DNA of 64,000 bases from a virus (IMGVR_UViG_3300005439_000019:9805-73804), one strand, 5' to 3'. Positions 17,996 to 60,555 are shown, numbered from the stretch's first letter. Numbers and translations are program-made. Notes: generated from the sequence alone by a model not told the origin.

Positions 17996-18017
17996 AGCTT
18001 ATCAAGGAAGGCTGTAT
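17996..18017 (-). promoter_or_regulatory. conserved promoter/operator motif (copy 1)
   Basis: Minus strand reads ATACAGCCTTCCTTGATAAGCTG-cattc-ATG. Extended -10 element TGATAAGCT sits 6 nt before the start codon. Confidence 0.5.
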
Positions 18018-18024
18018 TTGCCTA

Positions 18025-18387
18025 CTACCCGGTGAGCAGGACGTCTTCCGTCACGATGACCAGCCGCCAGGTGCCCTCCGGGACGTCCATGGTGACCTTC
18101 GCGGGCACCTGGAAATGGTCGATCGGGTCGCCGGTTATCCCGGACGCCCCCCACAGGTCGCGGCAGAGCATCATGGCGCGGCGGACCGACGGGTGCATCT
18201 CCAGCCGGAGCCCCTCCGGGAAGATCATCTGCGGGCCGTAGTGCTCGGCCAGGTACCCGCTCGACTTCGTGAACAAGTCGCGGGTCACCTGGTCGGCCTT
18301 GTCCCAGCCGGGGCACCCCCCGCCGTGCGGCTCGCGGTGCGGCTCGTGCAGGTCGTAGTTCCCGCAGCGGGACCAGGGGAGGGGCAT
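18025..18387 (-). CDS. hypothetical protein
   Basis: ORF track. Confidence 0.45.
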   Translation of the reverse strand: MPLPWSRCGNYDLHEPHREPHGGGCPGWDKADQVTRDLFTKSSGYLAEHYGPQMIFPEGLRLEMHPSVRRAMMLCRDLWGASGITGDPIDHFQVPAKVTMDVPEGTWRLVIVTEDVLLTG

Positions 18388-18394
18388 GAAGGGC

Positions 18395-18613
18395 CTACCT
18401 CTCGGCCGCTAGCCCGTTGTTGTGCCTCATGCACGCCTCCTCGGCCAGCTCCGGGGTAACGAAGTGCCCGATCGGGTGATCGTCGTGATAATCCGGGGTG
18501 CCCATGTCGGCGTAGACGTTGCAAGGGTTCTGGTGCCCTGTGCGCCAGTGGCGGCCGACCATGGAGGCGGCAGCCTGGCGGTAGGAGCCGTAAGCCTCGG
18601 TGATGCTGCTCAT
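18395..18613 (-). CDS. hypothetical protein
   Basis: ORF track. Confidence 0.4.
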   Translation of the reverse strand: MSSITEAYGSYRQAAASMVGRHWRTGHQNPCNVYADMGTPDYHDDHPIGHFVTPELAEEACMRHNNGLAAER

Positions 18614-18622
18614 GACGGCAGG

Positions 18623-18892
18623 CTAGCGGTCGCGGAGCCTCTCGAAGGCCAGGACGAGCAGGAGCACCCGGCAGTCGATGTCCCGGGTGTCGATGCTGTA
18701 GCCGTGCGGCACCCCGGCCCGGTCGAGCAGGTGGTGGGCGTTGCGGATCTCGGCGAACATCTCCCCGGCGTAATGGGTGTCCGGGTCGGGCGCGGTCCAG
18801 TTGTTGTTCACCAGGGGATGCGGCTTGAACGCCAGGTCCTCCAGGACAGACCAGTCCACCTCGCCCCGGCCCGGGAACAGCTCCTCGCTCAC
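18623..18892 (-). CDS. hypothetical protein (GTG start)
   Basis: ORF track; high GC3. Confidence 0.45.
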   Translation of the reverse strand: MSEELFPGRGEVDWSVLEDLAFKPHPLVNNNWTAPDPDTHYAGEMFAEIRNAHHLLDRAGVPHGYSIDTRDIDCRVLLLVLAFERLRDR

Positions 18893-19093
18893 ATCCTGGT
18901 AAGACGGCGCACCGGAGGCGGTTGTCCGGGAACACCAGGCAGTCTCTCGCGTGCTCGATGACGTAGGGGGAGGTCTTCCCGTCCCCGGTGATCACCTCGG
19001 CGTCGCATTCCCCACAGGCGAGAGTGCCTGATTTGGTCCAGTAGAGGGTCTGCTGCACCCTTATGTCCTCTCCGGCCCCGCCAGGAAGAAACA
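18893..19093 (-). CDS. possible Cys-containing small protein with no in-frame stop (frameshift or sequencing error?)
   Basis: From ATG near 19091, frame MFLPGGAGEDIRVQQTLYWTKSGTLACGECDAEV... has high GC3. It runs stop-free into the next gene in the +1 frame. The alternative track frame 18889..19104 is Arg-rich with low GC3. Confidence 0.25.
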
Positions 19094-19225
19094 TATACCA
19101 CCATGACGGGACGGGAAATACCTGAAGCCGGCGGTCACCGGGACGTAAGGAAGCCCGCCGCTGATCAATGAGGGAAGAACCATCAACCCTGTCCGGGATC
19201 TCCCCCGGCTCTACTGCGGCAGGCC

Positions 19226-19447: not shown

Positions 19448-19550
19448 TGACTGCTCCTCGCTGGTGATGTCCGGCGGGGTGCTGCGTGCCGTGGCGTTCC
19501 GCTCCCGTAGGGCGGTGATCCGTGGGATCAGTCACTTCCCTGATGCCACG

Positions 19551-19571
19551 AGTATATCAAGGAAAGCTGTA
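19551..19571 (-). promoter_or_regulatory. conserved promoter/operator motif (copy 2)
   Basis: Minus strand reads ATACAGCTTTCCTTGATATAC; -10-like TGATATACT. Confidence 0.45.
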
Positions 19572-19579
19572 TTTTCCTA

Positions 19580-19867
19580 CTAGGGCCGGGGACGACCCTC
19601 GGCCCAGGCCCTCAGGAGCCCGAGGCTCGGGAACGCTCGACCCCCGGTCCCCCGGTGGCTGTTGCACCACTTGTGGGCCAGCCTCATGTTCTCGGTGGTG
19701 TTCGGGCCGCCGAGGGACCGGGGGATGAAGTGGTCGCGGGACCAGTGCCAGTCGTCGTCGTCGTCCTCGATGCCGAAGTCGATCGGCTCGCGGCACAGCC
19801 AGCAGTCATCGCCGTCGCGCCTGCGGAGCCGGGCCACCTGGCGTGCGACGGCGCGGGAGTGTCCCAT
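19580..19867 (-). CDS. HNH endonuclease (95 aa)
   Basis: Frame of track ORF 19580..19996 from MGHSRAV. Motifs CWLCREP...DHFIPRSLGGPNTTENMRLAHKWCNSHRG. TGATG coupling to the upstream gene. Confidence 0.55.
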   Translation of the reverse strand: MGHSRAVARQVARLRRRDGDDCWLCREPIDFGIEDDDDDWHWSRDHFIPRSLGGPNTTENMRLAHKWCNSHRGTGGRAFPSLGLLRAWAEGRPRP

Positions 19868-20060: not shown

Positions 20061-20402
20061 CTAGCAGCGCTCCCTCAGGGTGATGTCCGCCGCGCCGAGG
20101 TGCACCAGGATCGCCCTGACGTCCTCCAGCGTCCGGGGGCGCAGCTCGGCCATGGCCGCGAAGAACTCGGGTGCCTGGGCGCGGGCCGCGTCCAGGTCTT
20201 CGGGGTCGCAGTAACGGTCGAGGCGGACTTCCCCGCTGCCGTCGTCCTCGATCAGCAGCCCCCAGTAGCAGCCGTCGCCAGGGACGCGGGCTGCGACCAG
20301 GATGTCCGGCACCTTGCCGGGGTCACTGGCGAGCACGGCCGGCCAGTACCAGGCCTCCGACTCGAAGGAGTAGGAGAAGACAGCGCCTTCCGGGAGGTTC
20401 AC
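20061..20402 (-). CDS. hypothetical protein (GTG start), apparently leaderless
   Basis: ORF track; GTG sits 6 nt after the TAAGCT of the motif at 20406-20430. Confidence 0.45.
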   Translation of the reverse strand: MNLPEGAVFSYSFESEAWYWPAVLASDPGKVPDILVAARVPGDGCYWGLLIEDDGSGEVRLDRYCDPEDLDAARAQAPEFFAAMAELRPRTLEDVRAILVHLGAADITLRERC

Positions 20403-20405
20403 TGC

Positions 20406-20430
20406 TACAGCTTATCAAGGAAAGCTGTAT
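20406..20430 (-). promoter_or_regulatory. conserved promoter/operator motif (copy 3, perfect inverted repeat)
   Basis: Minus strand reads ATACAGCTTTCCTTGATAAGCTGTA-gca-GTG. Palindromic arms TACAGCTT/AAGCTGTA. Confidence 0.5.
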
Positions 20431-20745
20431 TAGAACTAGCCCTCTTCCTGGGCCAGGCAGGAGGCTCGCCGGAGTTCGTCCTCGCGGAGTTCGTCCTCGC
20501 GGATTTCCGCGTCCCTCTGCCCGGTGAGATCGAACTTGCGGGGTCCCTGTTCCTGGTTGCCGGCGTCGAGCAGCTCGCGGTCCGGGTGCGGGCGTCCGGG
20601 AACCCGGGTGCGGGTTCTCTCGTGACCTGGCTGGGCCAGGGCCTCTTCGTCATCTGCCATGCCCGTGATCATAGCCCCGGAAATGGCGGAGGCCCTCGTC
20701 GCTTCGCAGCTCGGAGGACCTCCGGTCGCTCTTAACGAGTGATCA

Positions 20746-21771
20746 CTAGCTCTTGGTGATGCTCGCCAGGCCGCGCGGGTTGAGGATCGACATGGCGATC
20801 ATCTCGTCGAACACCCAGCCCTTCCAGAACGCCTCGACGTTGTGGTTCTCCTCAACGTCGAGGCTGTACAGGATAGGGAAAACTCCCAGGAAGTTCGGCT
20901 CGGGCGCGAGGAAGATCTTCGCCTGCGGGACGATGATGCTCCGCTGGATCTGGAACTCGCCGAAGCTGGTGATCGTCTCACCTGCGACAACGCGGTCCTT
21001 GAAGGCCCAGCCGGTCTGGTTGATGTCCCACCTGAACATGTCCCTGTAGTCGAAGGGGTTGATCAGGATGCGGGCCGACGGAAGCTCGTGCAGGTCGGTC
21101 ATCGCCACGGCGGAGTAGAGGCTGCCCGGCGTGAGGTAGCCGCTCGCCTCGGTGATGTTGTGGTTGGGGGTGACCACGTGGTCCGGCCGGGTGGCGTAGT
21201 CGGTGATCGCCGCCTGGAGGAGCACCAGCAGCCGGGCGTCCTCCTGCTTGAGGATGGCCTGCTTGGTCTCGTCCTGCGCCTGCTCGACCGCGTTGATGCG
21301 CAGGTAGAACAGGTCCTCCTTGCGGATCGCGGGACGCGAGGCGATGCGGAAGAACCGAACGGGGATTCGCTTGCCCTCGAACGGGGTAACCCGGACTTCG
21401 CCCTCTGTTCCAGAAAGGATGTAGGCCTGGCCAAGGTCATCCCAGACGTCGTACTCCACCGGGGTACCGGGAGTAACCGGGTCCTCGACCAGGACGTTCC
21501 GGACGATGCCCTGGTAGCGCAGCTTGAGCTGGATGGGGCCGACCATCCCGACGCCCAGCCGGCGGAAGCCGTGCATCTCGTCGCTCAGGATGAGCGCCAT
21601 CTTCCGCACCTTGGCCTCGCGGGTCAGCGAGACCCCGTTGGTCCGGGCGCGGCGCGCCTCGATCTGCGCAACGTAGTCGTCAGACTTGCGCGATGCCACG
21701 CGGGGCCGCAGGCCGCCGCCGGGAGCCAGCGCCAGTTGCCCGCCGGCCGTAGTGGTCGCCAGCTCGGTCAT
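20746..21771 (-). CDS. major capsid protein (HK97-fold-like, 341 aa)
   Basis: ORF track. Size, position downstream of the protease-scaffold gene and composition fit a capsid protein. Assigned by family resemblance only. Confidence 0.5.
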   Translation of the reverse strand: MTELATTTAGGQLALAPGGGLRPRVASRKSDDYVAQIEARRARTNGVSLTREAKVRKMALILSDEMHGFRRLGVGMVGPIQLKLRYQGIVRNVLVEDPVTPGTPVEYDVWDDLGQAYILSGTEGEVRVTPFEGKRIPVRFFRIASRPAIRKEDLFYLRINAVEQAQDETKQAILKQEDARLLVLLQAAITDYATRPDHVVTPNHNITEASGYLTPGSLYSAVAMTDLHELPSARILINPFDYRDMFRWDINQTGWAFKDRVVAGETITSFGEFQIQRSIIVPQAKIFLAPEPNFLGVFPILYSLDVEENHNVEAFWKGWVFDEMIAMSILNPRGLASITKS

Positions 21772-27707: not shown

Positions 27708-27762
27708 AGGGTCCTCCCGGTCTGCTCTCCTCTTCCGGGGCAGCCCGGGAACCCGTTGCTCA

Positions 27763-27783
27763 ATACAGCTTTTCTTGATATTC
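27763..27783 (+). promoter_or_regulatory. conserved promoter/operator motif (copy 4) in a divergent intergenic region
   Basis: ATACAGCTTTTCTTGATATTC between the minus gene start (27707) and the plus gene start (27835). Confidence 0.45.
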
Positions 27784-27834
27784 TCGTGCCAGCGAACGCA
27801 GAGCAGGGACGAAGCAGGGACACTGGAGGAGAAG

Positions 27835-28395
27835 ATGACCGAGATGACACTGGCCCAGCAGGTCGCCCAGGAGGCAGCCGGACGGGTCCACAAGCTCGCC
27901 CCCTACCTGACCGACGGCCGGCACCCGCTCACCCCCGGGCAGGCCGAGGGGATCATGCGGCACCTGGGCACGTGCCCGGTACGGCCAGCTCCGGAGGAGA
28001 ACGTGGCGCGTCACGACGCTCACAGGGCGGAAACGGATCACGAGCGTCACGCGGCAGGCCCCGTCATCGCCGACATCACGGCCGGGTTCTACGCCACGCC
28101 GAGCAGGACCGGCACCAACGACCTGGACTTCTGGAAGGTCACCGAGGGCCGCAGGCCCGGCATCCGGTTCGTCAAGCGGGTGGTCGGCGGCGGCGACGAC
28201 AAGTACCCCAGGCTGATCGAGATCTCCAACCAGGAGCAGCTCCAGGCGCTGCGGGCTATCCTGCGGGCAGGGATATCAGAGGCTGCCGACGTCTACGCCG
28301 TCAACCAGGAGCGCTGCAAGAAGTGCGGCAGCCAGCTTACTGACGAGGCGTCGCGGGCGGCCAGGATGGGGCCTGTATGCCGAGGAGAACGGTGA
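27835..28395 (+). CDS. hypothetical protein (186 aa)
   Basis: Frame of track ORF 27775..28395; ATG after GGAGGAG; C-terminal CKKCGSQ...C. Confidence 0.45.
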   Translation: MTEMTLAQQVAQEAAGRVHKLAPYLTDGRHPLTPGQAEGIMRHLGTCPVRPAPEENVARHDAHRAETDHERHAAGPVIADITAGFYATPSRTGTNDLDFWKVTEGRRPGIRFVKRVVGGGDDKYPRLIEISNQEQLQALRAILRAGISEAADVYAVNQERCKKCGSQLTDEASRAARMGPVCRGER

Positions 28396-33600: not shown

Positions 33601-33646
33601 GACGCCTCCTCAACCCTTCCCCGGTTCCCCAGGAAAGCATTGCTTA

Positions 33647-33668
33647 AATACAGGATTTCTTGATATTG
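33647..33668 (+). promoter_or_regulatory. conserved promoter/operator motif (copy 5, degenerate)
   Basis: AATACAGGATTTCTTGATATTG upstream of 33721. Confidence 0.4.
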
Positions 33669-33720
33669 TCTTGGCACGAAGACTTGCCTGTAACCCCGAG
33701 CCAGACGAGGAGCAGTGATC

Positions 33721-33975
33721 ATGCCGCACCTGATGGGCCAGGTCCTGCCGCGCGACCTGAAGCCGGGCGACGAGATCATCCGCCCCTACGGCTCCAGCCC
33801 GGAGCGCGTGAGGCTGGTGGTCAAGCGCACCCAGAGGACGCACGGCGTTATCCGGGCCGGCCACGTCACCCGGTACAAGGTGATCACCGACCGCGCCGAG
33901 CACAACCGCTTCTGGGTCGCCCCGCACGTAAGGATCGATATCTGCCTCACCCACAAGAGGCCGGAGGAGTCATGA
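33721..33975 (+). CDS. hypothetical protein
   Basis: Track ORF 33715..33975; ATG 7 nt after a GAGGAG SD. Confidence 0.4.
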   Translation: MPHLMGQVLPRDLKPGDEIIRPYGSSPERVRLVVKRTQRTHGVIRAGHVTRYKVITDRAEHNRFWVAPHVRIDICLTHKRPEES

Positions 33976-44896: not shown

Positions 44897-45112
44897 TCAC
44901 AGCGCGACCTCCCCGCCGGCCATGTCCGAAAGGCGGAGCCCCTTGGCGTTGCGGTACCCCTCGGCCCACGTCATCGCCTCCTGGCCGAGGTGGTCAGCGA
45001 GCGCCTTCCTCGCCCCGGCGAACGTGCCGAAGACGCGCTCGCCGTCTACCGGGTCCTCGGTTTCCGCGATCCCGCCCGTGGCATTCGACCCGGACCACCA
45101 CCTGTAGTTCAT
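44897..45112 (-). CDS. hypothetical small protein
   Basis: ORF track. Confidence 0.35.
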   Translation of the reverse strand: MNYRWWSGSNATGGIAETEDPVDGERVFGTFAGARKALADHLGQEAMTWAEGYRNAKGLRLSDMAGGEVAL

Positions 45113-45140
45113 GCCCCGATTCTATGCTGCTCTCTTGGAA

Positions 45141-45164
45141 ATATACAGCTTTTCTTGATAAGCT
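45141..45164 (+). promoter_or_regulatory. conserved promoter/operator motif (copy 6); leaderless start of the long plus-strand operon
   Basis: TATACAGCTTTTCTTGATAAGCTG-cgggaATG. The TAAGCT -10 element lies 6 nt before the ATG. Confidence 0.5.
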
Positions 45165-45169
45165 GCGGG

Positions 45170-45554
45170 AATGAGCGTGAAGAGCAGGAACGGCTCATGG
45201 AAGGGGCCTACGAGCATGAGTGAGACTAGCCAGGAGCCGGGCGGGTTCAGCGTCGCGGTGGTCACCGGCTTCAGCCCGGTCGAGATCTCGATCCAGCACC
45301 TCGTCCTGGACATCGACCCGGACGACTTCTTCACCACCGACAACATGCCGCGCGGACGGGACTACGGGTTCGACGCGGTAGACGTCGGCTACGCCATCGA
45401 GGACGCCGGGTACGAGCCGACCTCCGACCTCCAGTGGACAGGCACCCACTGGGCCTACGTCGTGCAGCCGAAGACAGACCCGGCCGGTGACCCGCGCTAC
45501 CACCCCGGGAAGCTCCCGCCGCTCAGGGCGTGGGAGCAGGGCGGCTACGAGTGA
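45170..45554 (+). CDS. hypothetical protein
   Basis: ORF track. Confidence 0.45.
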
Positions 45555-49173: not shown

Positions 49174-49511
49174 GGAGGAGGGACCTGAAGGGCGAGCGCG
49201 GGAAGCGCGACCCGGCCGTGGAGACGGCGGTGGGGCTCCTCGGCCACGTGGCCGACCTTCCGGCAGGCGAGCAGCTCAGGGCCGCAGTCGAGCTGCTCCA
49301 GATGATGGGGTTCGTCCCGACGCCGGAGGCGGAGGCCAGGAAGCGGGTGCCCGCTCCCCAGGTGGTGCCGGGCAAGCGGACGACCATGCTCCGGGGGCTC
49401 AGGGAGCCGGTGTCGGCCTGCTGCGGCGCGGAGATGGAGACGGCGGGGACCGTGACCCGGTACTACGTGTGCACCCGGTGCGACATGCCCTGTGACGCAA
49501 AGGCTTCCTAA
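49170..49511 (+). CDS. hypothetical protein (C-terminal CxxC)
   Basis: GTGA overlap; frame of track ORF 48984..49511. Confidence 0.35.
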   Translation: MRRRDLKGERGKRDPAVETAVGLLGHVADLPAGEQLRAAVELLQMMGFVPTPEAEARKRVPAPQVVPGKRTTMLRGLREPVSACCGAEMETAGTVTRYYVCTRCDMPCDAKAS

Positions 49512-49512
49512 A

Positions 49513-49538
49513 ATACAGCTTTCCTTGATAAGCTGTAT
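49513..49538 (+). promoter_or_regulatory. conserved promoter/operator motif (copy 7, full palindrome)
   Basis: ATACAGCTTTCCTTGATAAGCTGTAT followed by a GGGAGGG SD and the GTG at 49565. Confidence 0.5.
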
Positions 49539-49564
49539 TCAGCAACCCCAGGGAGGGCCAGGAC

Positions 49565-49897
49565 GTGAACGCGAAGATGCGGGAGCTGGTGCACCGGGCG
49601 GTGGTCGACGCGCTCATCGCGGGCGGCTCCCCGGTCGACCAGGGCAGGCACTCCTACGGCTGGATCGACGGCCGGTACGCGGAGCTGCGCATCCACATGG
49701 CCCACTGCCCCCCGGTCTACGAGGCGTGCACCTGGTACGACTCCTCGTGGAGCGAGTTCCAGGGCACCTTCGACCCGCCCGCCGACATGAAGGGCATCGA
49801 CCTGAAGCTGGCCTGCCGGTGCGGGCTGCTGACCGGGCGGACATGGCGGTACTCCGGCGGCTACGCGGACCTGATCCGCGCGATCACGGGAGAGTGA
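49565..49897 (+). CDS. hypothetical protein
   Basis: ORF track. Confidence 0.45.
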   Translation: MNAKMRELVHRAVVDALIAGGSPVDQGRHSYGWIDGRYAELRIHMAHCPPVYEACTWYDSSWSEFQGTFDPPADMKGIDLKLACRCGLLTGRTWRYSGGYADLIRAITGE

Positions 49898-51005: not shown

Positions 51006-51214
51006 GCGGAGACATCGGCCAGGAGGACCCGCAGGGCCTGTACGACGCCGGCTGGGCGGAAGACGGCCAGGTGACGCACGTCTGGATCGAGGAGGAGCAC
51101 GAGGCGATCGTCATCGACCTCAAGTCCGAAGAAGGACAGGCGCTCCTGGCGGAGCAGCGCAGGGCGATGCTGGAGCGGGTGCGGCAGATCCTGATCGGCG
51201 GGCGCTATGGGTAG
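51002..51214 (+). CDS. hypothetical protein
   Basis: GTGA overlap; frame of track ORF 50780..51214. Confidence 0.35.
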   Translation: MSGDIGQEDPQGLYDAGWAEDGQVTHVWIEEEHEAIVIDLKSEEGQALLAEQRRAMLERVRQILIGGRYG

Positions 51215-52212: not shown

Positions 52213-52321
52213 ACGCGATGACGGGGCACGGGGTGCCGCACTGCCCTGTCCTGGTCAGCCCGGAGACCGGGGCGGGCGAGGAGCACGTCGCGGTGGTGGC
52301 GCAGTGGCTGGGGAGCCTGTG

Positions 52322-52504
52322 ATGCAGAGGGTGCTGCTGGCGGTCGAGGCGTTCGCGCCTGACGGCATGAGCGAGGGCGAGGCCTCGCAGGACGTGTACC
52401 TGGCGCTGCGGGCGGCGTTCGCTTCCAGGGACATGCTGGTCGAGGTCAGTCACGTCAAGACAATGATGATTGCTTCCGATTTATCAAGAAAAGCTGTATC
52501 CTGA
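52322..52504 (+). CDS. hypothetical small protein; C-terminus reads through the motif
   Basis: Track ORF 52304..52504. Confidence 0.25.
   Translation: MQRVLLAVEAFAPDGMSEGEASQDVYLALRAAFASRDMLVEVSHVKTMMIASDLSRKAVS
52481..52499 (-). promoter_or_regulatory. conserved motif (copy 8, half-site in reverse orientation)
   Basis: TTATCAAGAAAAGCTGTAT. On the plus strand, TGTATCCT plus a 7-nt spacer precedes the ATG at 52510. Confidence 0.35.
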
Positions 52505-52509
52505 CTGAC

Positions 52510-52770
52510 ATGAATACCGAAGAGGCGCAGGCGGTCCTCGACGCGAGGGCCGACGCCGAGAAGCACTTGCTGGAGCACGACGAGACACCGGAGATGTACC
52601 TCTCTAGCTCCCGTCTGGCGAGCATGGCGTCTTACGCGCGCAAGCAGACCGGGACCCCCGAGCCGGCAAAGCCGCAGAACGAGCGGGAGGCCGTGGACGA
52701 CATCCTGGAGGCCATGTTCCCGCAGACCGGCGAGGCCCTTGAGGTCCTTGCTCGGGCGGAGCTGGGATGA
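52510..52770 (+). CDS. hypothetical protein
   Basis: ORF track. Confidence 0.4.
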   Translation: MNTEEAQAVLDARADAEKHLLEHDETPEMYLSSSRLASMASYARKQTGTPEPAKPQNEREAVDDILEAMFPQTGEALEVLARAELG

Positions 52771-53114: not shown

Positions 53115-53344
53115 AGCTCGCAGTCAGCTCCGCCGAGGCGGCGGTCGCCGTCATCGACTGGGAAGGCCCGCTCCCCCGCAAGGGCGATTACATCGAGGTG
53201 CCGGGGTCCGACGGGCACGACCCGCTGGTCCCCGGTCACCTGCGCGCCGTGCTGTACGTCGTGTGGCACTTCCTGGGCGAGAAGCCGGAGGGCGGGCTCT
53301 ACGGCCCGGCCCAGGAGCCGTACGCCGAGGTGATGATCTCGTGA
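53111..53344 (+). CDS. small protein, tandem paralogue A
   Basis: GTGA overlap; AVIDWEGPLPRKGDYIEVPG...EPYAEVMIS. Confidence 0.35.
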   Translation: MKLAVSSAEAAVAVIDWEGPLPRKGDYIEVPGSDGHDPLVPGHLRAVLYVVWHFLGEKPEGGLYGPAQEPYAEVMIS

Positions 53345-53589
53345 GGCTGATCATCAGCACAGGCAACGGGGAGCACCCCGTCGCGGTGGTCGACGACTAC
53401 CAGGGGCCGGTGCCCCGCGCCGGCGACTCGATCCACTACCCGCAGGACGGCGAACCCTCTCCGGGCGTGTGCCTCGACGGCTTCATGACGGTGCGCGCCG
53501 TGATGTGGGGAATCGTCGCGCGGGACCCGTGCAGGGTGCGGGGCTGGATGGTCGGGGCCGAGGAGCCGTTCGTCGAGGTGATCGTGTGA
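53341..53589 (+). CDS. small protein, tandem paralogue B
   Basis: GTGA overlap; AVVDDYQGPVPRAGDSIHYPQ...EPFVEVIV. Confidence 0.35.
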   Translation: MRLIISTGNGEHPVAVVDDYQGPVPRAGDSIHYPQDGEPSPGVCLDGFMTVRAVMWGIVARDPCRVRGWMVGAEEPFVEVIV

Positions 53590-53828
53590 GCAAGTGGCAC
53601 GAGGGCCAGAAGGTCCGGGTGGTCGAGTGCGTGGACGCCACCAGGAAGCCGAAGGAAGGCGGGGAAGCGTACCCGGCCGAGGTGCTGCGGGTCGTCGGCC
53701 CGTACGTGATCGCCGACATCCCCGCCCTCGGCGAGGTCGCCTCGTTCTGGGTGCAGTCCGGGTGGACCGCCTGGGACGCGATGTTCAGGTGGCGGCTCAT
53801 GCCGCTTGAGGAGAAGGGGCAGGGATAA
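53586..53828 (+). CDS. hypothetical protein
   Basis: GTGA overlap; frame of track ORF 53469..53828. Confidence 0.35.
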   Translation: MSKWHEGQKVRVVECVDATRKPKEGGEAYPAEVLRVVGPYVIADIPALGEVASFWVQSGWTAWDAMFRWRLMPLEEKGQG

Positions 53829-54076
53829 TGGGCATCTTCAGGCAGGAGTACCCGGCGGGTCACCCCAACGGGAAGGTCTACTCGCTGGTCTACGAGGACG
53901 GCGAGCCTTACACCTTCCGGCAGGCAGGCCAGGACCCGATCCGGGAGTGGAACCTGGCCTCGGCCGTCATGTGGGCCAACCACGTGACGAGCGACGGCGG
54001 GGGAACGCTCAGCGTCGTCGACCCCGACACCCGGGCAGTGCTGTGGGTCGGCGAGATGAGCACGAGGTCCCGATGA
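53828..54076 (+). CDS. hypothetical protein
   Basis: ORF track. Confidence 0.4.
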   Translation: MGIFRQEYPAGHPNGKVYSLVYEDGEPYTFRQAGQDPIREWNLASAVMWANHVTSDGGGTLSVVDPDTRAVLWVGEMSTRSR

Positions 54077-54402
54077 CCCTCCCGGCGATGGCAGGCGACA
54101 GGTGCCTGGTGGTGCAGACGGACCCTGGCAGCGGCGAGCCCGTGGAGGGCGGCCACGTGATCGAGGCGACGTGCGCCCGGTTCCTACTCAACGGCGACGT
54201 CGAGGTCACCCACGGCCACATGGACGAGGCGCTGCGAGGCACCTGGATTCCGATGCGCTTCGACGGGTCGGACGGCTACAACACGGCCGGCTGGGAGCGC
54301 TCCTGGCGGCTGATGATCCCCGGGGACCCCGGGGCATGGCGGCCGGGCGACCCGGTGCCGGACGCGCCGGGGCACGGCTACTGGGAGAAGGGGGACTACT
54401 GA
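54073..54402 (+). CDS. hypothetical protein
   Basis: ATGA overlap; frame of track ORF 53806..54402. Confidence 0.4.
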   Translation: MTLPAMAGDRCLVVQTDPGSGEPVEGGHVIEATCARFLLNGDVEVTHGHMDEALRGTWIPMRFDGSDGYNTAGWERSWRLMIPGDPGAWRPGDPVPDAPGHGYWEKGDY

Positions 54403-54740
54403 TGATGACGCTGCTCGTCATCGCGGCTTCGTGGATCGCCGCAGACCTCGTTCACAGCGTGGCCACCCTCGGGAAGACCGTGAGGATCACCCGGAGGTAC
54501 GCGGTCGTCAGCGTGACGGAGGACCTCGGCCTGGCCGCCGTCTACGCCGTCACGGCCCAAGCCGCGCACCAGTGGTGGCTGTACCTGGCCACCGGGCTCC
54601 TCGCGGTATCCGCCCCGGTCATGATCCTCGGTTACGGCAAGGCGTTCACGAGGACGCGCCTCCTGGTTGCAAGTCAGGTGGCCCTCGACGTCGTGCTGAT
54701 CGCCCTGCTGGCCGGCGCGGCTGACCACCTGGGGCACTAA
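54402..54740 (+). CDS. membrane protein (3 TM)
   Basis: Frame of track ORF 54102..54740 from MMTLLVIAASW. Confidence 0.4.
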   Translation: MMTLLVIAASWIAADLVHSVATLGKTVRITRRYAVVSVTEDLGLAAVYAVTAQAAHQWWLYLATGLLAVSAPVMILGYGKAFTRTRLLVASQVALDVVLIALLAGAADHLGH

Positions 54741-54994
54741 TGGACGCCACCGAGTTCAGCGCCCAGATGCGGCGGGGCTACTCCTCCAAGGCGGACGCCT
54801 GCCGGGACAAGACCCACCGCTCGTCGTGGGGCGTCATGGTCCGCCTCGGCAACTACAGCGCGTTCAACGGCTACCACTTCACCCCCAGCGATTACTCGCT
54901 GGTCAGGTGCGGGCACCCAGGATGCGGGCGGATGTGGCGGACGAAGGCGTCCTATGTGAGCGAGCTGCCGGACCTGACCAGGGAGAGAGGGTGA
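54740..54994 (+). CDS. hypothetical protein
   Basis: ORF track. Confidence 0.4.
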   Translation: MDATEFSAQMRRGYSSKADACRDKTHRSSWGVMVRLGNYSAFNGYHFTPSDYSLVRCGHPGCGRMWRTKASYVSELPDLTRERG

Positions 54995-54999
54995 GCGGC

Positions 55000-55368
55000 A
55001 TGACGGACACTGAGGCCCGGACCGTGCTGCGCGCCGTCGCCGGGTACGAGTGGCCGGTCACCGCAGCCGAGACCGCGCGGATGACCGGGCTGTCCCGGCA
55101 GACGACAGCCGGGATGATGGCCGAGCTGGCGCGCCAGGGGCTGCTGAGCAGGGCCAGGCAGGAGTCGCGCTCCTCCTACACCGTCACCGAGACGGGGCGG
55201 GCCGAGCTGGAGCAGAACAAGACGACGGTCCTGGCGGTGGAGGTGGACGACCGGCTGGCCGCTGAGGTCATGGCCTACCTCCAGTCCGTCAACGGGGTGG
55301 AGATGGTCTACGAGCACGGCAACGGCTGCTGCTGCAAGAACTGCCCCTGGCGGGGGAACCACGGGTGA
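55000..55368 (+). CDS. winged-helix transcriptional regulator-like protein with C-terminal Cys cluster
   Basis: Frame of track ORF 54826..55368; MTGLSRQTTAGMMAELARQGLL; CCCKNCPW. Confidence 0.4.
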   Translation: MTDTEARTVLRAVAGYEWPVTAAETARMTGLSRQTTAGMMAELARQGLLSRARQESRSSYTVTETGRAELEQNKTTVLAVEVDDRLAAEVMAYLQSVNGVEMVYEHGNGCCCKNCPWRGNHG

Positions 55369-55583
55369 GCACCGCCGACCTGGCCAGGGAGAAGGCCCTC
55401 AGCGCGCTCAGGCTCAACCGGGAGGCGGAAGACCTGATCGCCATGGCCCGCAGGCTGCCCTGGTGGCGGCCGGGCACCCGGCTGGCCCTTGTCAACGAGG
55501 CTGAGGACCTCCTCCTGGAGGCCGACTCGCTGACCGCCGAGAGCTTCCTGCTGACCGCCATCGCCCTGCGAGGCCAGCGGTAA
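55365..55583 (+). CDS. hypothetical protein
   Basis: ORF track. Confidence 0.35.
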   Translation: MSTADLAREKALSALRLNREAEDLIAMARRLPWWRPGTRLALVNEAEDLLLEADSLTAESFLLTAIALRGQR

Positions 55584-55804
55584 TGGCGGGCGGCGTGGCG
55601 AGGAACGTCACCCCCGGCGACGTGCGCGAGCAGGTGCGCCGGATCGGGGCGTACTCGGCGCACGCCGGGGCGACGGCGCACGCCATGGAGGACCAGCTCT
55701 ACCTGGCGGTGCTCGCCGCCATCGCCCAGGGAGCGCCGCAGGCGGCGGAGCTGGCCCAGGCGGCGCTGATGACCAGGGGCTACGAGTTCGAGAGGTACAC
55801 GTAA
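55583..55804 (+). CDS. hypothetical protein
   Basis: ORF track. Confidence 0.35.
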   Translation: MAGGVARNVTPGDVREQVRRIGAYSAHAGATAHAMEDQLYLAVLAAIAQGAPQAAELAQAALMTRGYEFERYT

Positions 55805-55806
55805 CG

Positions 55807-55989
55807 ATGGACAGGTGCCAGGGATGCGGGGCCGGGGACCCGGAGTTCTCGCTGGAGCCCGATGACGGCGCGGAGGTCCTATCATGCGCGGGGTGCCTCG
55901 CCGCGATCGTCACCAGGCTGTTCGACGACGGCTCCGTCATCGCTCCCGCCTGGGGGATGAAGGTCTACGACGTCAGGCCGCACACGTGA
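55807..55989 (+). CDS. hypothetical small Cys protein
   Basis: ORF track. Confidence 0.35.
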   Translation: MDRCQGCGAGDPEFSLEPDDGAEVLSCAGCLAAIVTRLFDDGSVIAPAWGMKVYDVRPHT

Positions 55990-56180
55990 TGACGGGCGAG
56001 GACGGCGCGCAGGAGACTGCGGAGGCGGACCCGGCCGCGAAGCGCCGCGAGATCAACCGGCGCTACAACACCAGCCGCAAGGGGCAGAAGCGCAACAAGC
56101 GCTACGAGGACAAGCACCCTGAGCGGGCGCTTCGGTGGGAGAAGGCGCGCAACGCAATGAGGCCGGGAGGAGCGCCGTGA
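55986..56180 (+). CDS. hypothetical basic protein
   Basis: GTGA overlap; frame of track ORF 55884..56180. Confidence 0.3.
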   Translation: MMTGEDGAQETAEADPAAKRREINRRYNTSRKGQKRNKRYEDKHPERALRWEKARNAMRPGGAP

Positions 56181-56386
56181 GCGCAGTAGAGTCAGCGACC
56201 GCCGGGGACGGCTACGAGGTCCGGGCGGGCACCGAGGTGGTGGCCGACGGCCCGGACCACTACGGGGTCGTCGCCGGCCTGGCGGAGGAGGACGGCCGCG
56301 TCGTGGCGGCGGTCATGTGCGAGGACGACGTGCTGCGCGGCTACGACGTGGAGGACCTGAGCGTCTTCACTGTGCAGCACGGCTGA
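56177..56386 (+). CDS. hypothetical acidic protein
   Basis: GTGA overlap; frame of track ORF 56135..56386. Confidence 0.3.
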   Translation: MSAVESATAGDGYEVRAGTEVVADGPDHYGVVAGLAEEDGRVVAAVMCEDDVLRGYDVEDLSVFTVQHG

Positions 56387-56561
56387 CGGGGTGCTCCGTT
56401 ACCTGGTTTCATTGGCAACGTGAAGCCGAGCGAGGACCTCCGGGAGTGCGGCCGGGCCGGGTGCGGCCACCAGCGCCGCGTCCATGACCACTACACGCAC
56501 TCGACCTATTGCAGCACGACCGGGTGCCTGTGCCGGAAATGGCACCGGCCCCGTAGAGGAA

Positions 56562-56582
56562 ATACAGGCTTTGTTGATATCC
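56562..56582 (+). promoter_or_regulatory. conserved promoter/operator motif (copy 9, degenerate)
   Basis: ATACAGGCTTTGTTGATATCC upstream of a GGAAGGGAG SD and the ATG at 56621. Confidence 0.4.
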
Positions 56583-56620
56583 TCTTGCTGATATCGGGGC
56601 ACGAGGAAGGGAGCCTGAGC

Positions 56621-56860
56621 ATGACGAGGAAGTGGCGGGTCATCATCGCGGGATGGGCCAGGGGGCCGGGAATCAACGCGATGTACGAGCTGTGGCTCGG
56701 CCTGACGTACGAGCCGTGGCGGCTGGTGCCGCACCTGCGGAGCCCGAGGAGGATTCCGGCAGGCGACGGGTACGAGTGCTCCTTCTGCGGGTCGCGCTCG
56801 GCGCGGGTCCAGGCCAAGGGACAGCGCAAGGCCGAGGCGATCCGGAGGCAGTTCGCATGA
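56621..56860 (+). CDS. hypothetical protein with CSFCG zinc ribbon
   Basis: Internal ATG of track ORF 56420..56860, after the SD. Confidence 0.4.
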   Translation: MTRKWRVIIAGWARGPGINAMYELWLGLTYEPWRLVPHLRSPRRIPAGDGYECSFCGSRSARVQAKGQRKAEAIRRQFA

Positions 56861-57789
56861 GCGAGGAACCAGGCAGGTACGCGGCACCCCAGGTGCAGGC
56901 GTCCCTGAGGGAAGACCCCGACCGGGGCGGCCTGGTCGTCGGGGTGCACACCGAGTACCCGAACAGCAAGGGCATGCCGTACGAGCGGCACGTGCCGAAC
57001 CTGGAGGCGGCCCTCGGCTACATCGGGACGTTCTGGCGCAACTCGGCCCCCGGCCGGGACGCGGCCGTGCCGCCCGCCGAGGGCATCGAGTGGGGCTACA
57101 GGTACAAGGCCCCCAGGACGCGCCAGGTCAGGGAGTACCAGTCGGACAACAGGGCCGAGGCCGAGCGCACCGTCCGCGAGTTCGCCGAGGACGGCGAGAA
57201 GAACCGCTGCGACTGGGAGGCCGGGGTCATCTGGCGAACGGCGGCGGTGAAGCCCGGCGAGTGGCACAGCCTGAAGCTGACGGTCACCGACACCCTGGAG
57301 AAGGTCGCGGAGGCCGGGGAGGACGGCGAGGCCGTCACCCCGCAGGTGCTGTCCGACCTGATGTCCCTGGCCGGCGGCACGGTCATCCCGCCGGAGGTGA
57401 TCGCCACCTGGACGGACGGGGAGCGCGAGCAGGCGGCCCAGTGGGCTGCGGCCGAGCACCTGAGCGCCTCCGACAACCCGGTGATCCGGGTGCCGCAGCC
57501 GGAGGTGGTGCGGCGCGCCGCCGAGATCTGCGCCAGCCCGGCCCTCGCCCAGCTCGCCGTCGAGTCGTGGCGCGATGCGGGACGGCGGCTGGAGGAGTCC
57601 GGGTTCACGTTCGACGACGAGAGCGCGCACGCCCTGGCGGTAGCCGGGCAGGACGCCATCACCGGGCTGCTGGTGCTGCTGAGGACCGCAGGGGGACCGG
57701 GGCAGTTCACCAGCGAGCAGATGGCGGCCACCTACCGCGCCGGGTACGTCAAGGCCCGCCAGGACGCGGTGACCGAGGAGCCGCTGTGA
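56857..57789 (+). CDS. hypothetical protein (310 aa)
   Basis: ATGA overlap; frame of track ORF 56632..57789. Confidence 0.45.
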   Translation: MSEEPGRYAAPQVQASLREDPDRGGLVVGVHTEYPNSKGMPYERHVPNLEAALGYIGTFWRNSAPGRDAAVPPAEGIEWGYRYKAPRTRQVREYQSDNRAEAERTVREFAEDGEKNRCDWEAGVIWRTAAVKPGEWHSLKLTVTDTLEKVAEAGEDGEAVTPQVLSDLMSLAGGTVIPPEVIATWTDGEREQAAQWAAAEHLSASDNPVIRVPQPEVVRRAAEICASPALAQLAVESWRDAGRRLEESGFTFDDESAHALAVAGQDAITGLLVLLRTAGGPGQFTSEQMAATYRAGYVKARQDAVTEEPL

Positions 57790-58148
57790 GCACGATGACC
57801 CTGGAGGAGATCCTCGACGTGATCGTCCTGATGGACGCGCACCTGGACAGCGCCGCCAGCCCGGACTATCAGGCGCAGCCGCTCGCCCAGGACTGGGCGC
57901 GGGTCACCAAGCCGTGCGAGGAGGCCGGGGAGGCGTGGCAGGCGTTCAGCCGGCTCACCGGGGAGAACCCCCGCAAGGGGAAGTGCGGCACCCTGGACGA
58001 GGTGCTCGGCGAGCTGGGCGACACGGCCGCGTCCGCGCTGATGGCGGTCCAGCACCTGGTGAAGGACCGGCAGCGGGTACTGGAGGTCCTGTCCGCCGCG
58101 ATGGAGAAGGCGCGTGCACGCGCCCTGGCCGGCGGGATAGCGCCGTGA
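57786..58148 (+). CDS. MazG-like nucleotide pyrophosphohydrolase
   Basis: GTGA overlap; frame of track ORF 57090..58148; EEAGEAWQA...LDEVLGELGDTAASALMAVQHL pattern. Confidence 0.4.
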   Translation: MSTMTLEEILDVIVLMDAHLDSAASPDYQAQPLAQDWARVTKPCEEAGEAWQAFSRLTGENPRKGKCGTLDEVLGELGDTAASALMAVQHLVKDRQRVLEVLSAAMEKARARALAGGIAP

Positions 58149-58360
58149 TCAGCCGGGCGGCGCTGTGGTACACCGCCCCCGTGCTGCTGACCGGCATGGC
58201 GGCGGCCCTGGCCTCGGAGCTGTTCGCAGGCTGGCTGGGGGACACGCTGCTGATCGCCGGGTGCGCCCTGCTGCTTCCCTGCTGCGCCGCGATGGCGGTG
58301 GCGTGCGGCCTGGACGCCGTGACCGGGTGGCGCAGGGAGCGCGAGAGGAGCAGGCAGTGA
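58145..58360 (+). CDS. small membrane protein
   Basis: GTGA overlap; frame of track ORF 57914..58360. Confidence 0.3.
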   Translation: MISRAALWYTAPVLLTGMAAALASELFAGWLGDTLLIAGCALLLPCCAAMAVACGLDAVTGWRRERERSRQ

Positions 58361-58563
58361 AGACAACAGCCACGCACAAGTGCCCCGGGCCGGGGTGCGA
58401 GGAGCAGATCGCCGTCGGCAAGCTGATGTGCGGGCCGCACTGGGACGAGGTGCCTGCCCCCTTGCAGGCGGAGGTGTACGCGGCCTGGGACCGGGGACGG
58501 GGCCGGGGCTCGCTGCGGCACCTGCAAGCTGTCCGGGCGGCGATCGAGGCGGTGCGTCCCTGA
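58357..58563 (+). CDS. small zinc-finger protein
   Basis: GTGA overlap; CPGPGCEEQ...CGPHW. Confidence 0.35.
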   Translation: MKTTATHKCPGPGCEEQIAVGKLMCGPHWDEVPAPLQAEVYAAWDRGRGRGSLRHLQAVRAAIEAVRP

Positions 58564-59351
58564 TGCGCGGCCGGGCGATGGTGAAGCCGGCCCTCAAAGG
58601 GCTCGCGGTGTCGGCGGCGACCATCCCGCCGCTGATGCTGCCCGAGCCAGGCTGGGCGATCTGGGCGCTGAACTTCATCGGGGCCGGGGCGTTCTACATG
58701 AGCGCCGTCACCCTGGCGGTGCTGTTCCTGTGGAACGTCCTGCACCCCGACACCGAGGAGCGCGACGCGCGGCTGGAGGCGGCGCGGGAGCACCAGCGGA
58801 TGATCATGGAGCACGCCAGTCCCCGGGCGGCCAGGACGCAGTGGGAGCGCGCGGTCCTGGAGGCGCGGCGGGCCGGGACGTTCAGCCTCAACGGGGTGCG
58901 GCAGCCGGGGACGACGCTGCGCTATCCCGGGCGCGACGTGACCTGGACCTACGATGAGATCGTCACGGCGGCGGGACGGGAGTGGGAGGCCAGGCACTAC
59001 GGGCCGCAGCCGCCGGGGTCGGTGCTGCGCTACCCCGGGCCGCCTCCCGTCTACACGCCGCCCGGCGGGTTCGAGGTGGTGATCCACGTCGAGCTGCGGG
59101 CCGAGCCGAAGATGATCCACGGCAGGGGCGGGCCGCTGAGCCCGGACCACGGCTGGACCTGCGAGGAGTGCGGCGAGCCGGTCACCGAGGGCCGTCGCTT
59201 CTGCCGGCCGTGTCTCACTCACGGGATGCCCGGGTACAACGCGCCCGAGCCGCACTCCGGGACCTGCGACCGCTGCGGGAAGCAGACCGGCATGTGCATG
59301 CGGGCCGGGGAGGGCCACCTGCACTACTGCTACGGCTGCGCGTACGGCTGA
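58563..59351 (+). CDS. membrane-anchored protein with C-terminal Cys-rich domain
   Basis: Frame of track ORF 58380..59351; TGATG overlap; four CxxC pairs at the C-terminus. Confidence 0.4.
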   Translation: MRGRAMVKPALKGLAVSAATIPPLMLPEPGWAIWALNFIGAGAFYMSAVTLAVLFLWNVLHPDTEERDARLEAAREHQRMIMEHASPRAARTQWERAVLEARRAGTFSLNGVRQPGTTLRYPGRDVTWTYDEIVTAAGREWEARHYGPQPPGSVLRYPGPPPVYTPPGGFEVVIHVELRAEPKMIHGRGGPLSPDHGWTCEECGEPVTEGRRFCRPCLTHGMPGYNAPEPHSGTCDRCGKQTGMCMRAGEGHLHYCYGCAYG

Positions 59352-59444
59352 CCGCAGGATCTTCACTTCACCTTCGAACCACCTCAACACTTCATCCTGC
59401 TCAATCCGCTTTAAACAGGAAAACCTTCACTGGAGGAGAGAGAA

Positions 59445-59711
59445 ATGACCGCAGTCGCCGACGAGATCACCGTCCCCGAGGGCCACGGGCTCATGCACGA
59501 GCTGGACAAGACCGGGGACACCCGCGTCATGTGGGACCGGGGCAACAGCGACGAGGTGGCCGCCGCCCGCAGGCAGTTCGACGACCTGACCGGCAAGGGG
59601 TACCTCGCTTACAAGGCCGAGGGCAAGGACGGCCACCAGGGGAGGCAGATCCGCAGGTTCGACCCCGAGGCCGAGCGGATCATCCTGGTCAAGCAGCTCG
59701 TCGGCGGCTGA
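59445..59711 (+). CDS. hypothetical protein with strong SD
   Basis: ORF track; GGAGGAGAGAGAAATG; preceded by a low-GC region with TTCAC repeats. Confidence 0.45.
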   Translation: MTAVADEITVPEGHGLMHELDKTGDTRVMWDRGNSDEVAAARRQFDDLTGKGYLAYKAEGKDGHQGRQIRRFDPEAERIILVKQLVGG

Positions 59712-59712
59712 C

Positions 59713-60504
59713 GTGCCAGCCGCGATGGCAGCGCTGACCAGTGACGAGGTGGTCAGCGCCATCGAGCGGGCCAGGACGCTGGCGCATGCACGGGAGCTGG
59801 CCCTAGCCGAGTCGCCCACGGCCGAGGAGATGGCGGCGCACCTCAGCATCCTGCCGTTCAAGGAGCAGGCGTTCCAAGCTTGGTCACCGGGCCAGACCTG
59901 GTTCGCCTGGTGCTCGACGACGAGCACCACCGTGACGATGAGCGACAGCACGTGGACGGCGTGGAACAACGGCGTTACCACCACCAGCGGCTCGCTGGCG
60001 CTCAACTACACCAGCGGCACCGCCTACGTCAGCACCGGCACGCAGTGGGTCTCGTGGAACACCAGCTACGCGGAGATGACCGAGGAGCAGCAGGCGGCCG
60101 TCGCCGAGGCGCACCGGGCCGCTGAGGAGCGCAGGGCCGCCCAGGAGGCCGAGTGGGCGGTCGAGCGGGCCGAGCGCGAGAAGGCGTCCGAGCGGGCCGC
60201 AGGGCTGCTCCTGAGCCTGCTGAGCCCCGGGCAGGCCGCGACGTACCGCGAGCACGGCTGGTTCGAGGTACGGGGCTCCTCGGGCCGCAGGTGGCGCATC
60301 AGGAACCGTGGCCAGTCCGGCAACGTCGACCTGATGCCGGAGATCGGCGAGGAGCGCGACGCCAGCTTCTGCGCGCACCCGCCGGGCCACCTGCCGGACG
60401 CCGACGCGCACGTGGCGCAGATGCTCGCCCTGGTCACCGACGACGAGGCGTTCGAGCGGACGGCGAACGTGCACTACCGCAGGCCCGCCTTGCGGGCGGC
60501 TTAG
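59713..60504 (+). CDS. hypothetical protein
   Basis: ORF track. Confidence 0.4.
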   Translation: MPAAMAALTSDEVVSAIERARTLAHARELALAESPTAEEMAAHLSILPFKEQAFQAWSPGQTWFAWCSTTSTTVTMSDSTWTAWNNGVTTTSGSLALNYTSGTAYVSTGTQWVSWNTSYAEMTEEQQAAVAEAHRAAEERRAAQEAEWAVERAEREKASERAAGLLLSLLSPGQAATYREHGWFEVRGSSGRRWRIRNRGQSGNVDLMPEIGEERDASFCAHPPGHLPDADAHVAQMLALVTDDEAFERTANVHYRRPALRAA

Positions 60505-60555
60505 CAAGAAAAGCTGTAAGGATCTTCCACCGATACAGCCTTTATTGATAAGCTC
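60501..60555 (+). promoter_or_regulatory. composite motif (copy 10: half-site plus full degenerate copy)
   Basis: AGCAAGAAAAGCTGTAA ... GATACAGCCTTTATTGATAAGCTC, then a GGAAGGGAGG SD and the ATG at 60587. Confidence 0.4.

Follow-up and report, generated by a model that had tools for sequence, protein, structure and literature searches.

The stretch of DNA IMGVR_UViG_3300005439_000019:9805-73804, a viral sequence of 64,000 nucleotides (the window hereafter) with a GC content of about 70%, carries a short AT-rich element that recurs at the boundaries of its genes, and this raises the question of whether the element is a promoter, a binding site for a regulatory protein, or both at once. An original prediction, made from the sequence alone, had described ten copies of a near-palindromic motif, proposed as an extended -10 promoter overlapped by the operator of a dimeric repressor. 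Comparison with related contigs supports the promoter, its extended -10 and its leaderless starts well, and this part of the reading is very probably correct. The best explanation of the whole, which we consider probable, is a family of extended -10 promoters used by the host RNA polymerase in which a box for a dedicated regulator is embedded. Overall, the repeated element of about 35 bp is a well-supported and fairly ordinary kind of phage control element.

The predicted 26-mer was searched with up to three mismatches, with shuffled sequences as control, and four sites were found (17992-18017 and 20405-20430 on the minus strand; 45143-45168 and 49513-49538 on the plus strand) against none in the shuffles; the other sites of the original prediction resemble the 26-mer in its left two-thirds only. 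A wider search, by an 18-nt core (ATACAGCTTTyCTTGATA, up to four mismatches) or a 27-nt position weight matrix (PWM), returned 12 copies with a clean score gap below them, whose 5' bases, each on its own strand, lie at 9654+, 18017-, 19572-, 20430-, 27763+, 33648+, 45143+, 49513+, 52499-, 56562+, 60519- and 60533+. Their leave-one-out PWM scores range from 19.1 to 47.5 bits, compared with a maximum of 13.2 in 50 simulated Markov-1 windows, and all 12 are significant. All ten sites listed originally do contain the motif, while the count rises to 12 because the copy at 9654 had been missed and the pair 60519/60533 had been taken as one.

Genes were called by the GC content at third codon positions (GC3), with a non-coding share of about 8.7% for 4200-63200. 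On this basis ten boxes contain no coding sequence, stop codons are touched by two, and one falls within the final codons of a weak open reading frame (ORF); every copy sits at a gene boundary. The claim that orientation follows the downstream gene holds for ten of the 12 copies, with 52499(-) and 60519(-) inverted, and divergent regions contain three copies (27763, 33648 and 45143) rather than 27763 alone. In the structural operon the upstream stop codon often falls at or just before the -35 position, and the whole promoter fits a gap of about 40 nt. Box promoters head the plus-strand array of small genes (45171, 49565, 52510, 56621 and 60587), gene 9682, three minus-strand units downstream of the capsid gene (20402, 19447 and 17989), and two plus-strand islands lying antiparallel inside the structural module (27835 and 33715). 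These islands, at 27835-28844 and 33715-34952, are situated between the 1394-aa, 1245-aa and 1172-aa genes of the minus-strand module; each has its own box promoter, and they look like inserted cassettes.

Relatives were gathered by an exact-core scan of IMG/VR together with capsid-anchored loci (cited by L number where they must be told apart), and close relatives, with at least 97% capsid identity, hold one to four copies per 20 kb. The pooled set comprises 87 distinct copies, numbered so that the hexamer occupies -12 to -7, and its consensus is wTACAGsTTTyCTTGmTAwnnT. T-27, A-26, T-20, T-19 and A-11 are invariant in 87/87, and C-25, A-24, T-16, T-15, G-14 and T-12 are kept in 85-86, including the TG element (T-15 in 86/87, G-14 in 85/87) and the first base of the hexamer (T-12, 86/87). 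T-7 is present in 75/87; the 12 copies without it belong to the forward-defective class, most members of which have TAnnnT on the other strand. Positions -9, -8 and -6 to -1 are unconstrained, the -35 region is weak (T-35 in 59/87, T-34 in 39/87), and the commonest hexamer is TAAGCT (20/87). Conservation this position-specific points to selection at individual sites and not to recent copying, and the motif reads as an extended -10 promoter (TGnTAnnnT) with a weak -35, apparently of the principal-sigma type. The extended -10 had been predicted, and it is borne out by the near-invariance of T-15, G-14, T-12 and A-11 and by T-7. In M. tuberculosis, the TGnTAnnnT class has the highest promoter activity, and no conserved -35 was found (PMC3898074).

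The spacing to the start codon points the same way. Among the 74 copies with an intact hexamer, 28 have ATG exactly 6 nt after it, with no more than four ATGs at any other offset; GTG follows at 6 nt in four and a start at 7 nt in five. This ATG peak puts the start codon on the predicted +1, as in leaderless mRNAs. Within the window this geometry is found for genes 9682, 17989, 20402 and 45171 (6 nt) and for 52510 (7 nt, from an inverted box), so that the four copies for which a start codon 6-7 nt after the hexamer had been proposed (17989, 20402, 45171 and 52510) are confirmed, with 9682 in addition. The remaining window copies have leaders with Shine-Dalgarno (SD)-like sequences. By the coding-strand test based on GC3, 60 of 72 forward-competent copies face a gene on the same strand.

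A recurrent leader, GCAAGG(g/a)AAC at about +5 to +15, was observed at forward copies (L002 7163, L007 9853 and 13126, L018 1431, L006 7637) and at inverted ones (L013 8247, L003 592, L002 2589, L006 5723). In the forward copies, CCCTTG at -35 mirrors this leader, giving an inverted repeat that brackets the promoter, and akin to it in the window are the leaders CAGCGAAC after 27763 and CAGCAACC after 49513. Three minus-strand junctions (16465, 16789 and 18613) carry TAGCCT or TAGCAT, 6 nt and then GTG or ATG, the TAG being the upstream gene's stop; they could be weak internal leaderless promoters or a mere recurrent coupling arrangement.

The conserved unit itself is a 17-bp box, TACAGCTTTTCTTGATA, at -27 to -11, inside which conserved and variable positions alternate. 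The forward -10 is defective in 13 of the 87 copies (e.g., TAAAGC, TAAATC or TAGACA). In ten of these 13, compared with 13 of the 74 forward-competent copies, the 5' TA of the box opens a TAnnnT hexamer on the opposite strand, and a gene leaves in the reverse direction from 12 of the 13 by the same coding-strand test. The reverse hexamers of the relatives are TATCCT, TATTGT, TAATGT and TATAAT, with TTGGCT, TTGCCA or TTGGCG as -35 at 16-17 nt, and the class, to which window copy 52499(-) belongs, recurs among them. Inversion shifts the TG by 1 nt, and CTTGATA is kept in these copies though it does not act as a -10 there. Since contacts of RNA polymerase alone do not explain why the full box is kept when inverted, a separate protein that recognizes the box is inferred, this being the main reason for proposing one. 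An operator-like box overlapping the promoter, in a form other than that originally predicted, is accordingly somewhat favoured by these comparisons.

In the mechanism that we propose, the -35 would be weak or absent (TTG, TTC or TAG at -35 to -33), the 3' end of the box would supply T-15 G-14 and T-12 A-11, the hexamer would be completed as TAwnnT, and the transcription start would lie 7 nt downstream of T-7. For about 40% of copies the predicted start would be the A or G of the start codon, producing a leaderless mRNA, and in the rest a short leader with an SD sequence would be made. The box would be bound by a dedicated DNA-binding protein, probably phage-encoded, co-regulating all these promoters. 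Because the box overlies both the spacer and the 5' half of the -10 and tolerates inversion, we lean towards a protein that would occlude the promoter, as a regulator of timing or a repressor, over an activator in contact with RNA polymerase.

Several other explanations must be weighed against this one. The original prediction took the arms TACAGCTT and AAGCTGTA as halves of a palindrome, with its centre near -15/-16 and extending over the -10, to which a dimeric repressor would bind; this idea is now very doubtful. It draws on the near-perfect palindromes at 49513 and 20430, the partial ones at 18017 and 45143, and the prevalence of TAAGCT, which tends mildly to co-occur with GCT at -23 to -21 (odds ratio 3.9, p=0.02, uncorrected for relatedness). 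However, the arms extend past the hexamer, where the bases are unconstrained and the right arm is unconserved, and arms of 8-9 bp occur in only three or four of the 12 window copies, eight of which lack the right arm. Of the nine possible arm pairs, three are fixed by promoter constraints and six are informative; complementarity across the 87-copy family is at the shuffled level, 1.83/6 against 1.75 +/- 0.05 with the right arms shuffled among copies (P ~0.05). At least 5/6 complementarity is reached by three copies (18017, 20430 and 49513, all in the window), with 2.7 expected, and a significant hairpin is found at 49513 and 20430 only. A short inner symmetry may be favoured, but the dyad of 8-9 bp is not a property of the element. 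What endures of the proposal is a putative protein site overlapping the promoter, in the shape of the 17-bp box, which serves at -27 to -11 whichever way it faces, and not of a palindrome of 8-9 bp. A reading of the motif as a hairpin or terminator was rejected, as only two or three copies fold.

A promoter without any separate regulator, either because the host RNA polymerase reads the whole 24-nt consensus, by way of the extended -10, a T-rich spacer and an upstream contact with the core enzyme or sigma, or because the sequence is a locally optimal strong promoter, is possible but unlikely. The 3' half of the box is an extended -10, the strongest mycobacterial class, that of the TGN promoters, does without a -35, and the searches link no DNA-binding protein to the box. 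Yet T-27, C-25, A-24 and A-26 are invariant or nearly so at positions (-27 to -24) where sigma-70-type holoenzymes are not known to read bases; the box remains intact when inverted, with its TTG then off -16 to -14; and leaderless TAGAAT promoters free of the box exist in the same genome. A promoter of a phage-encoded sigma factor or RNA polymerase would account for the length of the motif and its specificity to orientation and lineage, all traits of T7-type or phage-sigma promoters, and for the different repeats of other lineages, the window being only about 40% of the genome. This is nevertheless highly improbable: no sigma or RNA-polymerase domain occurs among the 109 window ORFs, TAnnnT at the canonical start-codon distance and TTGnnn at 17 nt in many copies fit the principal sigma factor, and the box is used inverted and lacks the conservation at -6 to +1 that single-subunit polymerases need. 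It is scarcely credible, finally, that the element is not primarily a promoter but a roadblock of the stoperator kind, a hairpin or processing site in the RNA, or a scar left at module boundaries by recombination or a mobile element. Like the stoperators of phage L5, it occurs in many intergenic copies with a preferred orientation; copies are found beside variable gene cassettes and the two antiparallel islands, and 60519 adjoins a hairpin. Such readings account neither for the invariant TA..T hexamer nor for the exact spacing to ATG, the hairpin is limited to two or three copies and has no Rfam match, and the uneven, position-specific conservation opposes a neutral scar.

The promoter with an embedded regulator box has its own difficulties. 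Neither the domain scan nor the distribution of homologues ties any protein to the box. In this lineage the box is asymmetric, which is unusual for a winged helix-turn-helix (HTH) dimer, and RNA polymerase itself could recognize part of it, namely the T-tract and TG. The copies were selected by PWM, so their conservation is somewhat inflated and promoters without the box go unseen; many of the 87 copies are orthologous, and the counts are not independent events. A scan of 44000-62000 with the E. coli consensus promoter gave 0 sites, which is expected for TAnnnT promoters and adds no independent support. In actinophages, proteins that bind asymmetric sites as monomers have been described (PMC9283540). 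An IHF-like reading of TATCAA in the inverted box was rejected by eye, since the TTR part of WATCAAnnnnTTR fails.

The domain scan of the 109 window ORFs, in a window that is about 40% of the genome, found no sigma, RNA-polymerase or integrase domain and no known repressor family. Its sole DNA-binding signatures are two weak predicted winged-HTH proteins, both of them named as candidates in the original prediction. The one at 14705..14983 (minus strand, 92 aa) matches MarR_2 with E=2.4e-5, below the Pfam cut-off, and phrog_2440 'transcriptional regulator' with E=8e-4; its homologues occur at motif-positive loci only, yet several motif-positive loci are without one, and small genes turn over quickly. 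The second, at 54991..55368 (plus strand, 125 aa, with a Cys-rich tail), matches MarR_2 and HTH_Crp_2 with E of about 1e-5 (below cut-offs), HTH_IclR with 22.1 bits against a cut-off of 22, and phrog_2440 with E=6e-5, and has homologues in L005 and L013. As candidate regulators, both have weak winged-HTH matches, under the Pfam cut-offs except for one marginal score, and nothing in these searches links either to the box.

The distribution of the motif is narrow. No match of at least 22 bits was found in the loci of more distant relatives anchored on the major capsid protein (L047-L103 except L063), which make up most of the roughly 1.0 Mb scanned, and a 35-nt blastn search of cultured phages returned only chance partial matches in AT-rich phages. 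Among 185,579 reference genomes the exact core gave 78 single scattered matches, mostly in AT-rich genomes, a number roughly consistent with chance for an 18-mer in about 600 Gb. No host or prophage with multiple copies was found among them in this search, a blunt test given that it demands the exact core, and this argues against a host regulon. The sole match in a high-GC genome is a lone copy in a 70%-GC contig binned with a metagenome-assembled genome (MAG) of Streptosporangiaceae (L134), which has no similarity to the window. In the search for early-region loci, proteins 56893-57789 and 59725-60504 had no exact peptide words in common with relatives. The literature searches turned up no published motif, either for this clade or for the promoters of cluster C phages.

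Loci L095, L082, L046, L058, L048 and L091, with 85-94% capsid identity, are without the motif and have high-copy intergenic repeats of their own. In the L091 lineage there is a more symmetric variant, TAnCAAGG-TTT-ATTGrTA, that is used in both directions. Other distant members of the clade have GGACTTGACTCTATCAG (11 copies in 20 kb), tCCTGTc..CCTGTGAAGGGGTGAGA (seven copies), the palindrome CGTTCCGTATACGGAACG and GTGCTATCTTCCTTGATAT. Control motifs thus appear to be lineage-specific across the clade; the alternating conservation, the L091 variant and the repeats of other lineages would fit, without proving it, the site of a factor co-evolving with its binder. At the edge of locus L088 (20158-20302), at least five tandem 36-nt repeats (GTAGCACCGGTTTGACCGTTATTACCGGTTAGACCA) were also seen, which probably encode a repetitive protein.

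Regarding the individual copies, the weakest (leave-one-out score 19.1 bits) is at 9654..9684 on the plus strand, where the box 9654-9671 (ATACAGGGTTCCTCGGTA) and the -10 TATCCT (9670-9675) are followed after 6 nt by ATG 9682 of a 73-aa gene, a leaderless geometry. Downstream of the capsid gene, three copies lie on the minus strand. The first, at 17987..18024, has its box at 18000-18017 and TAAGCT at 17996-18001, 6 nt from ATG 17989 (gene 17687-17989); it is near-palindromic (5/6), and the upstream gene's stop is just 5' of the box. The second, at 19544..19582 (box 19555-19572, -10 TATACT 19551-19556), is leadered, with a 5' untranslated region of about 100 nt to ATG 19447; the upstream gene's TAG stop is at 19580-19582 and a second TAG occupies the -35 position, and the orthologue in L041 (12054+) retains the box and the leader start. 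The third, at 20400..20437, is palindromic, with its box at 20413-20430 and TAAGCT at 20409-20414, 6 nt from GTG 20402 (gene 20061-20402).

The two island promoters are both on the plus strand in divergent gaps. At 27756..27837, the -35 TTGCTC (27756-27761), the box (27763-27780) and the -10 TATTCT (27779-27784) precede a leader with SD ggaggag and ATG 27835 of a 186-aa DUF6011 protein; about 15 orthologues retain TTGC or TTGA at a 17-nt spacing and TATTGT. At 33640..33723, TTGCTT with an 18-nt spacer, the box at 33648-33665 and TATTGT at 33664-33669 lead to GTG 33715 or ATG 33721, also with a leader.

In the plus-strand array, the copy at 49506..49567 is a perfect 26-bp palindrome (box 49513-49530, -10 TAAGCT 49529-49534), leadered with SD gggaggg to GTG 49565. 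The copy at 52475..52512 sits among co-directional plus-strand genes with its box inverted, on the minus strand at 52482-52499; its forward -10, TAAATC, is defective, and on the plus strand the other TA of the box seeds TATCCT (52497-52502), 7 nt from ATG 52510 of an 86-aa gene. At 56555..56623 (plus), the box 56562-56579 (ATACAGGCTTTGTTGATA) and the -10 TATCCT (56578-56583) are followed by a leader with SD gaagggag to ATG 56621. The array also contains a close pair. Copy 60533 (60526..60589, plus; box 60533-60550, -10 TAAGCT 60549-60554) is leadered with SD gggagg to ATG 60587 and has an orthologue at L006 803+. Its inverted neighbour 60519 (60484..60519, minus; box 60502-60519) is promoter-defective on both strands, with forward TAAGCC and reverse TAAGGA, overlaps the stop TAG 60502-60504 and adjoins the hairpin 60484-60499. 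The two are 31 bp apart centre-to-centre, three helical turns. Copy 60519 has no counterpart at the orthologous position of L006, which makes it a possible auxiliary site or a copy in decay.

At the head of the array lies a divergent control region, 45110..45173. On its plus strand, the box 45143-45160 and TAAGCT 45159-45164 stand 6 nt from ATG 45171, and on the minus strand a promoter without the box has TAGAAT at 45119-45124, 6 nt from ATG 45112. The -35 position of this minus-strand promoter coincides with the 5' end of the box of the plus-strand one, so that a single protein bound at the box within 45113-45170 could control both; in L013 the same arrangement is conserved despite diverged flanks. 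A second promoter type, leaderless and without the box, can be described from such sites as (GCA)TAGAAT, 6-7 nt, ATG. In the window it occurs at 45110-45124 (start 45112(-), 6 nt) and 13366-13384 (start 13368(-), 7 nt), in L013 at about 530-560, and it resembles the repeated TGCTAGAATAGAATCATG of phage Myrna (L104: 16010-16040, 20680-20710).

As judged by comparison of its genes, the window is about 40% of the genome of a large (about 160 kb) uncultivated actinobacterial phage, distantly related to the cluster C mycobacteriophages. Its nearest cultured relatives are those phages (Myrna, Phabba and Bxz1-like) and large Gordonia and Rhodococcus phages; the closest of them have 37% protein identity in the portal (gene 39231-41435, minus strand) and 59% in the capsid protein (major head protein gene 20746-21699, minus strand), and megablast of 20 kb of the window gave no nucleotide similarity to cultured phages. 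Related capsid genes occur on at least 192 IMG/VR contigs, among which several measure 154-166 kb. One of the 109 window ORFs matches DUF397 (E=8e-14), a domain that we take to be typical of Streptomyces-like actinomycetes, and this match and the Streptosporangiaceae contig are weak hints of the host group.

Some other features of the window deserve mention. At its start there is a plus-strand array of 21 tRNA genes (60-4194), with an odd call at 3086-3166 that has a 4-base anticodon, 'gaag', and that Rfam does not report at threshold; in the Rfam scan of the window only tRNAs were above threshold, and the motif had no match. Besides an AT-rich patch, a long non-coding stretch at 13163-13890 includes a hairpin resembling a terminator (GCACCCGG...CCGGGTGCTTTTCT), a tRNA-like T-arm (GGTTCGACTCC, 13539-13549) and, at 13662-13767, a sub-threshold match to YrlA, a Y RNA-like family (29.3 bits, gathering score 69, E=4e-4). 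The stretch may be a Y-RNA-like or tRNA-like gene. Ro-like proteins are encoded by cluster C phages, but no TROVE domain was seen in the window. At the convergent gene junction 14649-14704, a strong GC-rich hairpin (GAGCCCCGGCG..CGCCGGGGCTC, 14664-14692) is probably a bidirectional terminator.

The outcome is a first predicted map of transcription units for a widespread, soil-type clade of large actinophages that has no cultured member, in which unit starts, leaderless genes and a divergent control region are set out. The 17-bp sequence offers a concrete target for finding the putative regulator of the timing of gene expression, and the orientation-flipped copies can tell a protein-binding box from overlapping RNA-polymerase contacts. 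Compact promoters (about 35 bp), probably strong, with a short leader or none and taken from a 70%-GC background, are also possible expression parts for Streptomyces-like hosts.

Comparison with known systems places the element more precisely. Myrna, of cluster C2, whose capsid protein is 59% identical, carries GTTCTAGCsTGCTAGAATAGAATCATG twice just downstream of its capsid gene. Like the leaderless copies of the box promoter, this repeat has a leaderless geometry (TGC-TAGAAT, 6 nt, ATG), but it differs in sequence and has only two copies in 50 kb; no publication on it was found. The leaderless promoters of M. tuberculosis are similar in having TGnTAnnnT, no strong -35 and the start codon at +1 (PMC3898074), and the PL1/PR2 promoters of cluster O mycobacteriophages likewise form a divergent leaderless pair, strongly predicted to be SigA-like, in a control region (PMC4351075). 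Unlike both sets, 12 more base pairs upstream of the TG (-27 to -16) are near-invariant here, and the unit is used both ways. The operators and stoperators of cluster A phages (L5 gp71 and the TipsytheTRex repressor) are multi-copy asymmetric intergenic sites of 13-17 bp bound by a monomeric repressor, and they share with the box the many asymmetric copies in short intergenic gaps and the orientation bias; they are not promoters, however, and reversal abolishes their function (PMC9283540). The box is held in a fixed promoter register and tolerates inversion: nearly every copy has an in-register -10 on some strand, and 13 of the 87 are inverted. Compared with the phages that carry stoperators, no sign of a temperate lifestyle was seen here, with no integrase domain among the window ORFs.

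The conserved inverted repeats of phiC31, a temperate siphovirus, are true palindromes bound by the c repressor. They too are a multi-copy 17-bp promoter-associated element in a phage of a high-GC actinomycete, whereas the present box is asymmetric and the relatives of this phage are lytic-type myoviruses. Middle promoters of T4 combine a MotA box centred near -30 with a -10 and operate by sigma appropriation. The likeness is a conserved phage-specific box upstream of a TAnnnT -10 with the -35 weak or absent; the difference is that the present box spans -27 to -11 and works inverted, and MotA- or AsiA-like domains are absent from the window. A bolder and rather unlikely generalization would be that each lineage of this abundant, uncultivated clade of about 160-kb phages has its own 17-bp box in the -27 to -11 segment of dozens of promoters, read by a co-evolving, orientation-blind phage protein as a promoter-embedded master switch that replaces the -35. 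Such a switch would be analogous to sigma appropriation in function and distinct from it in mechanism.

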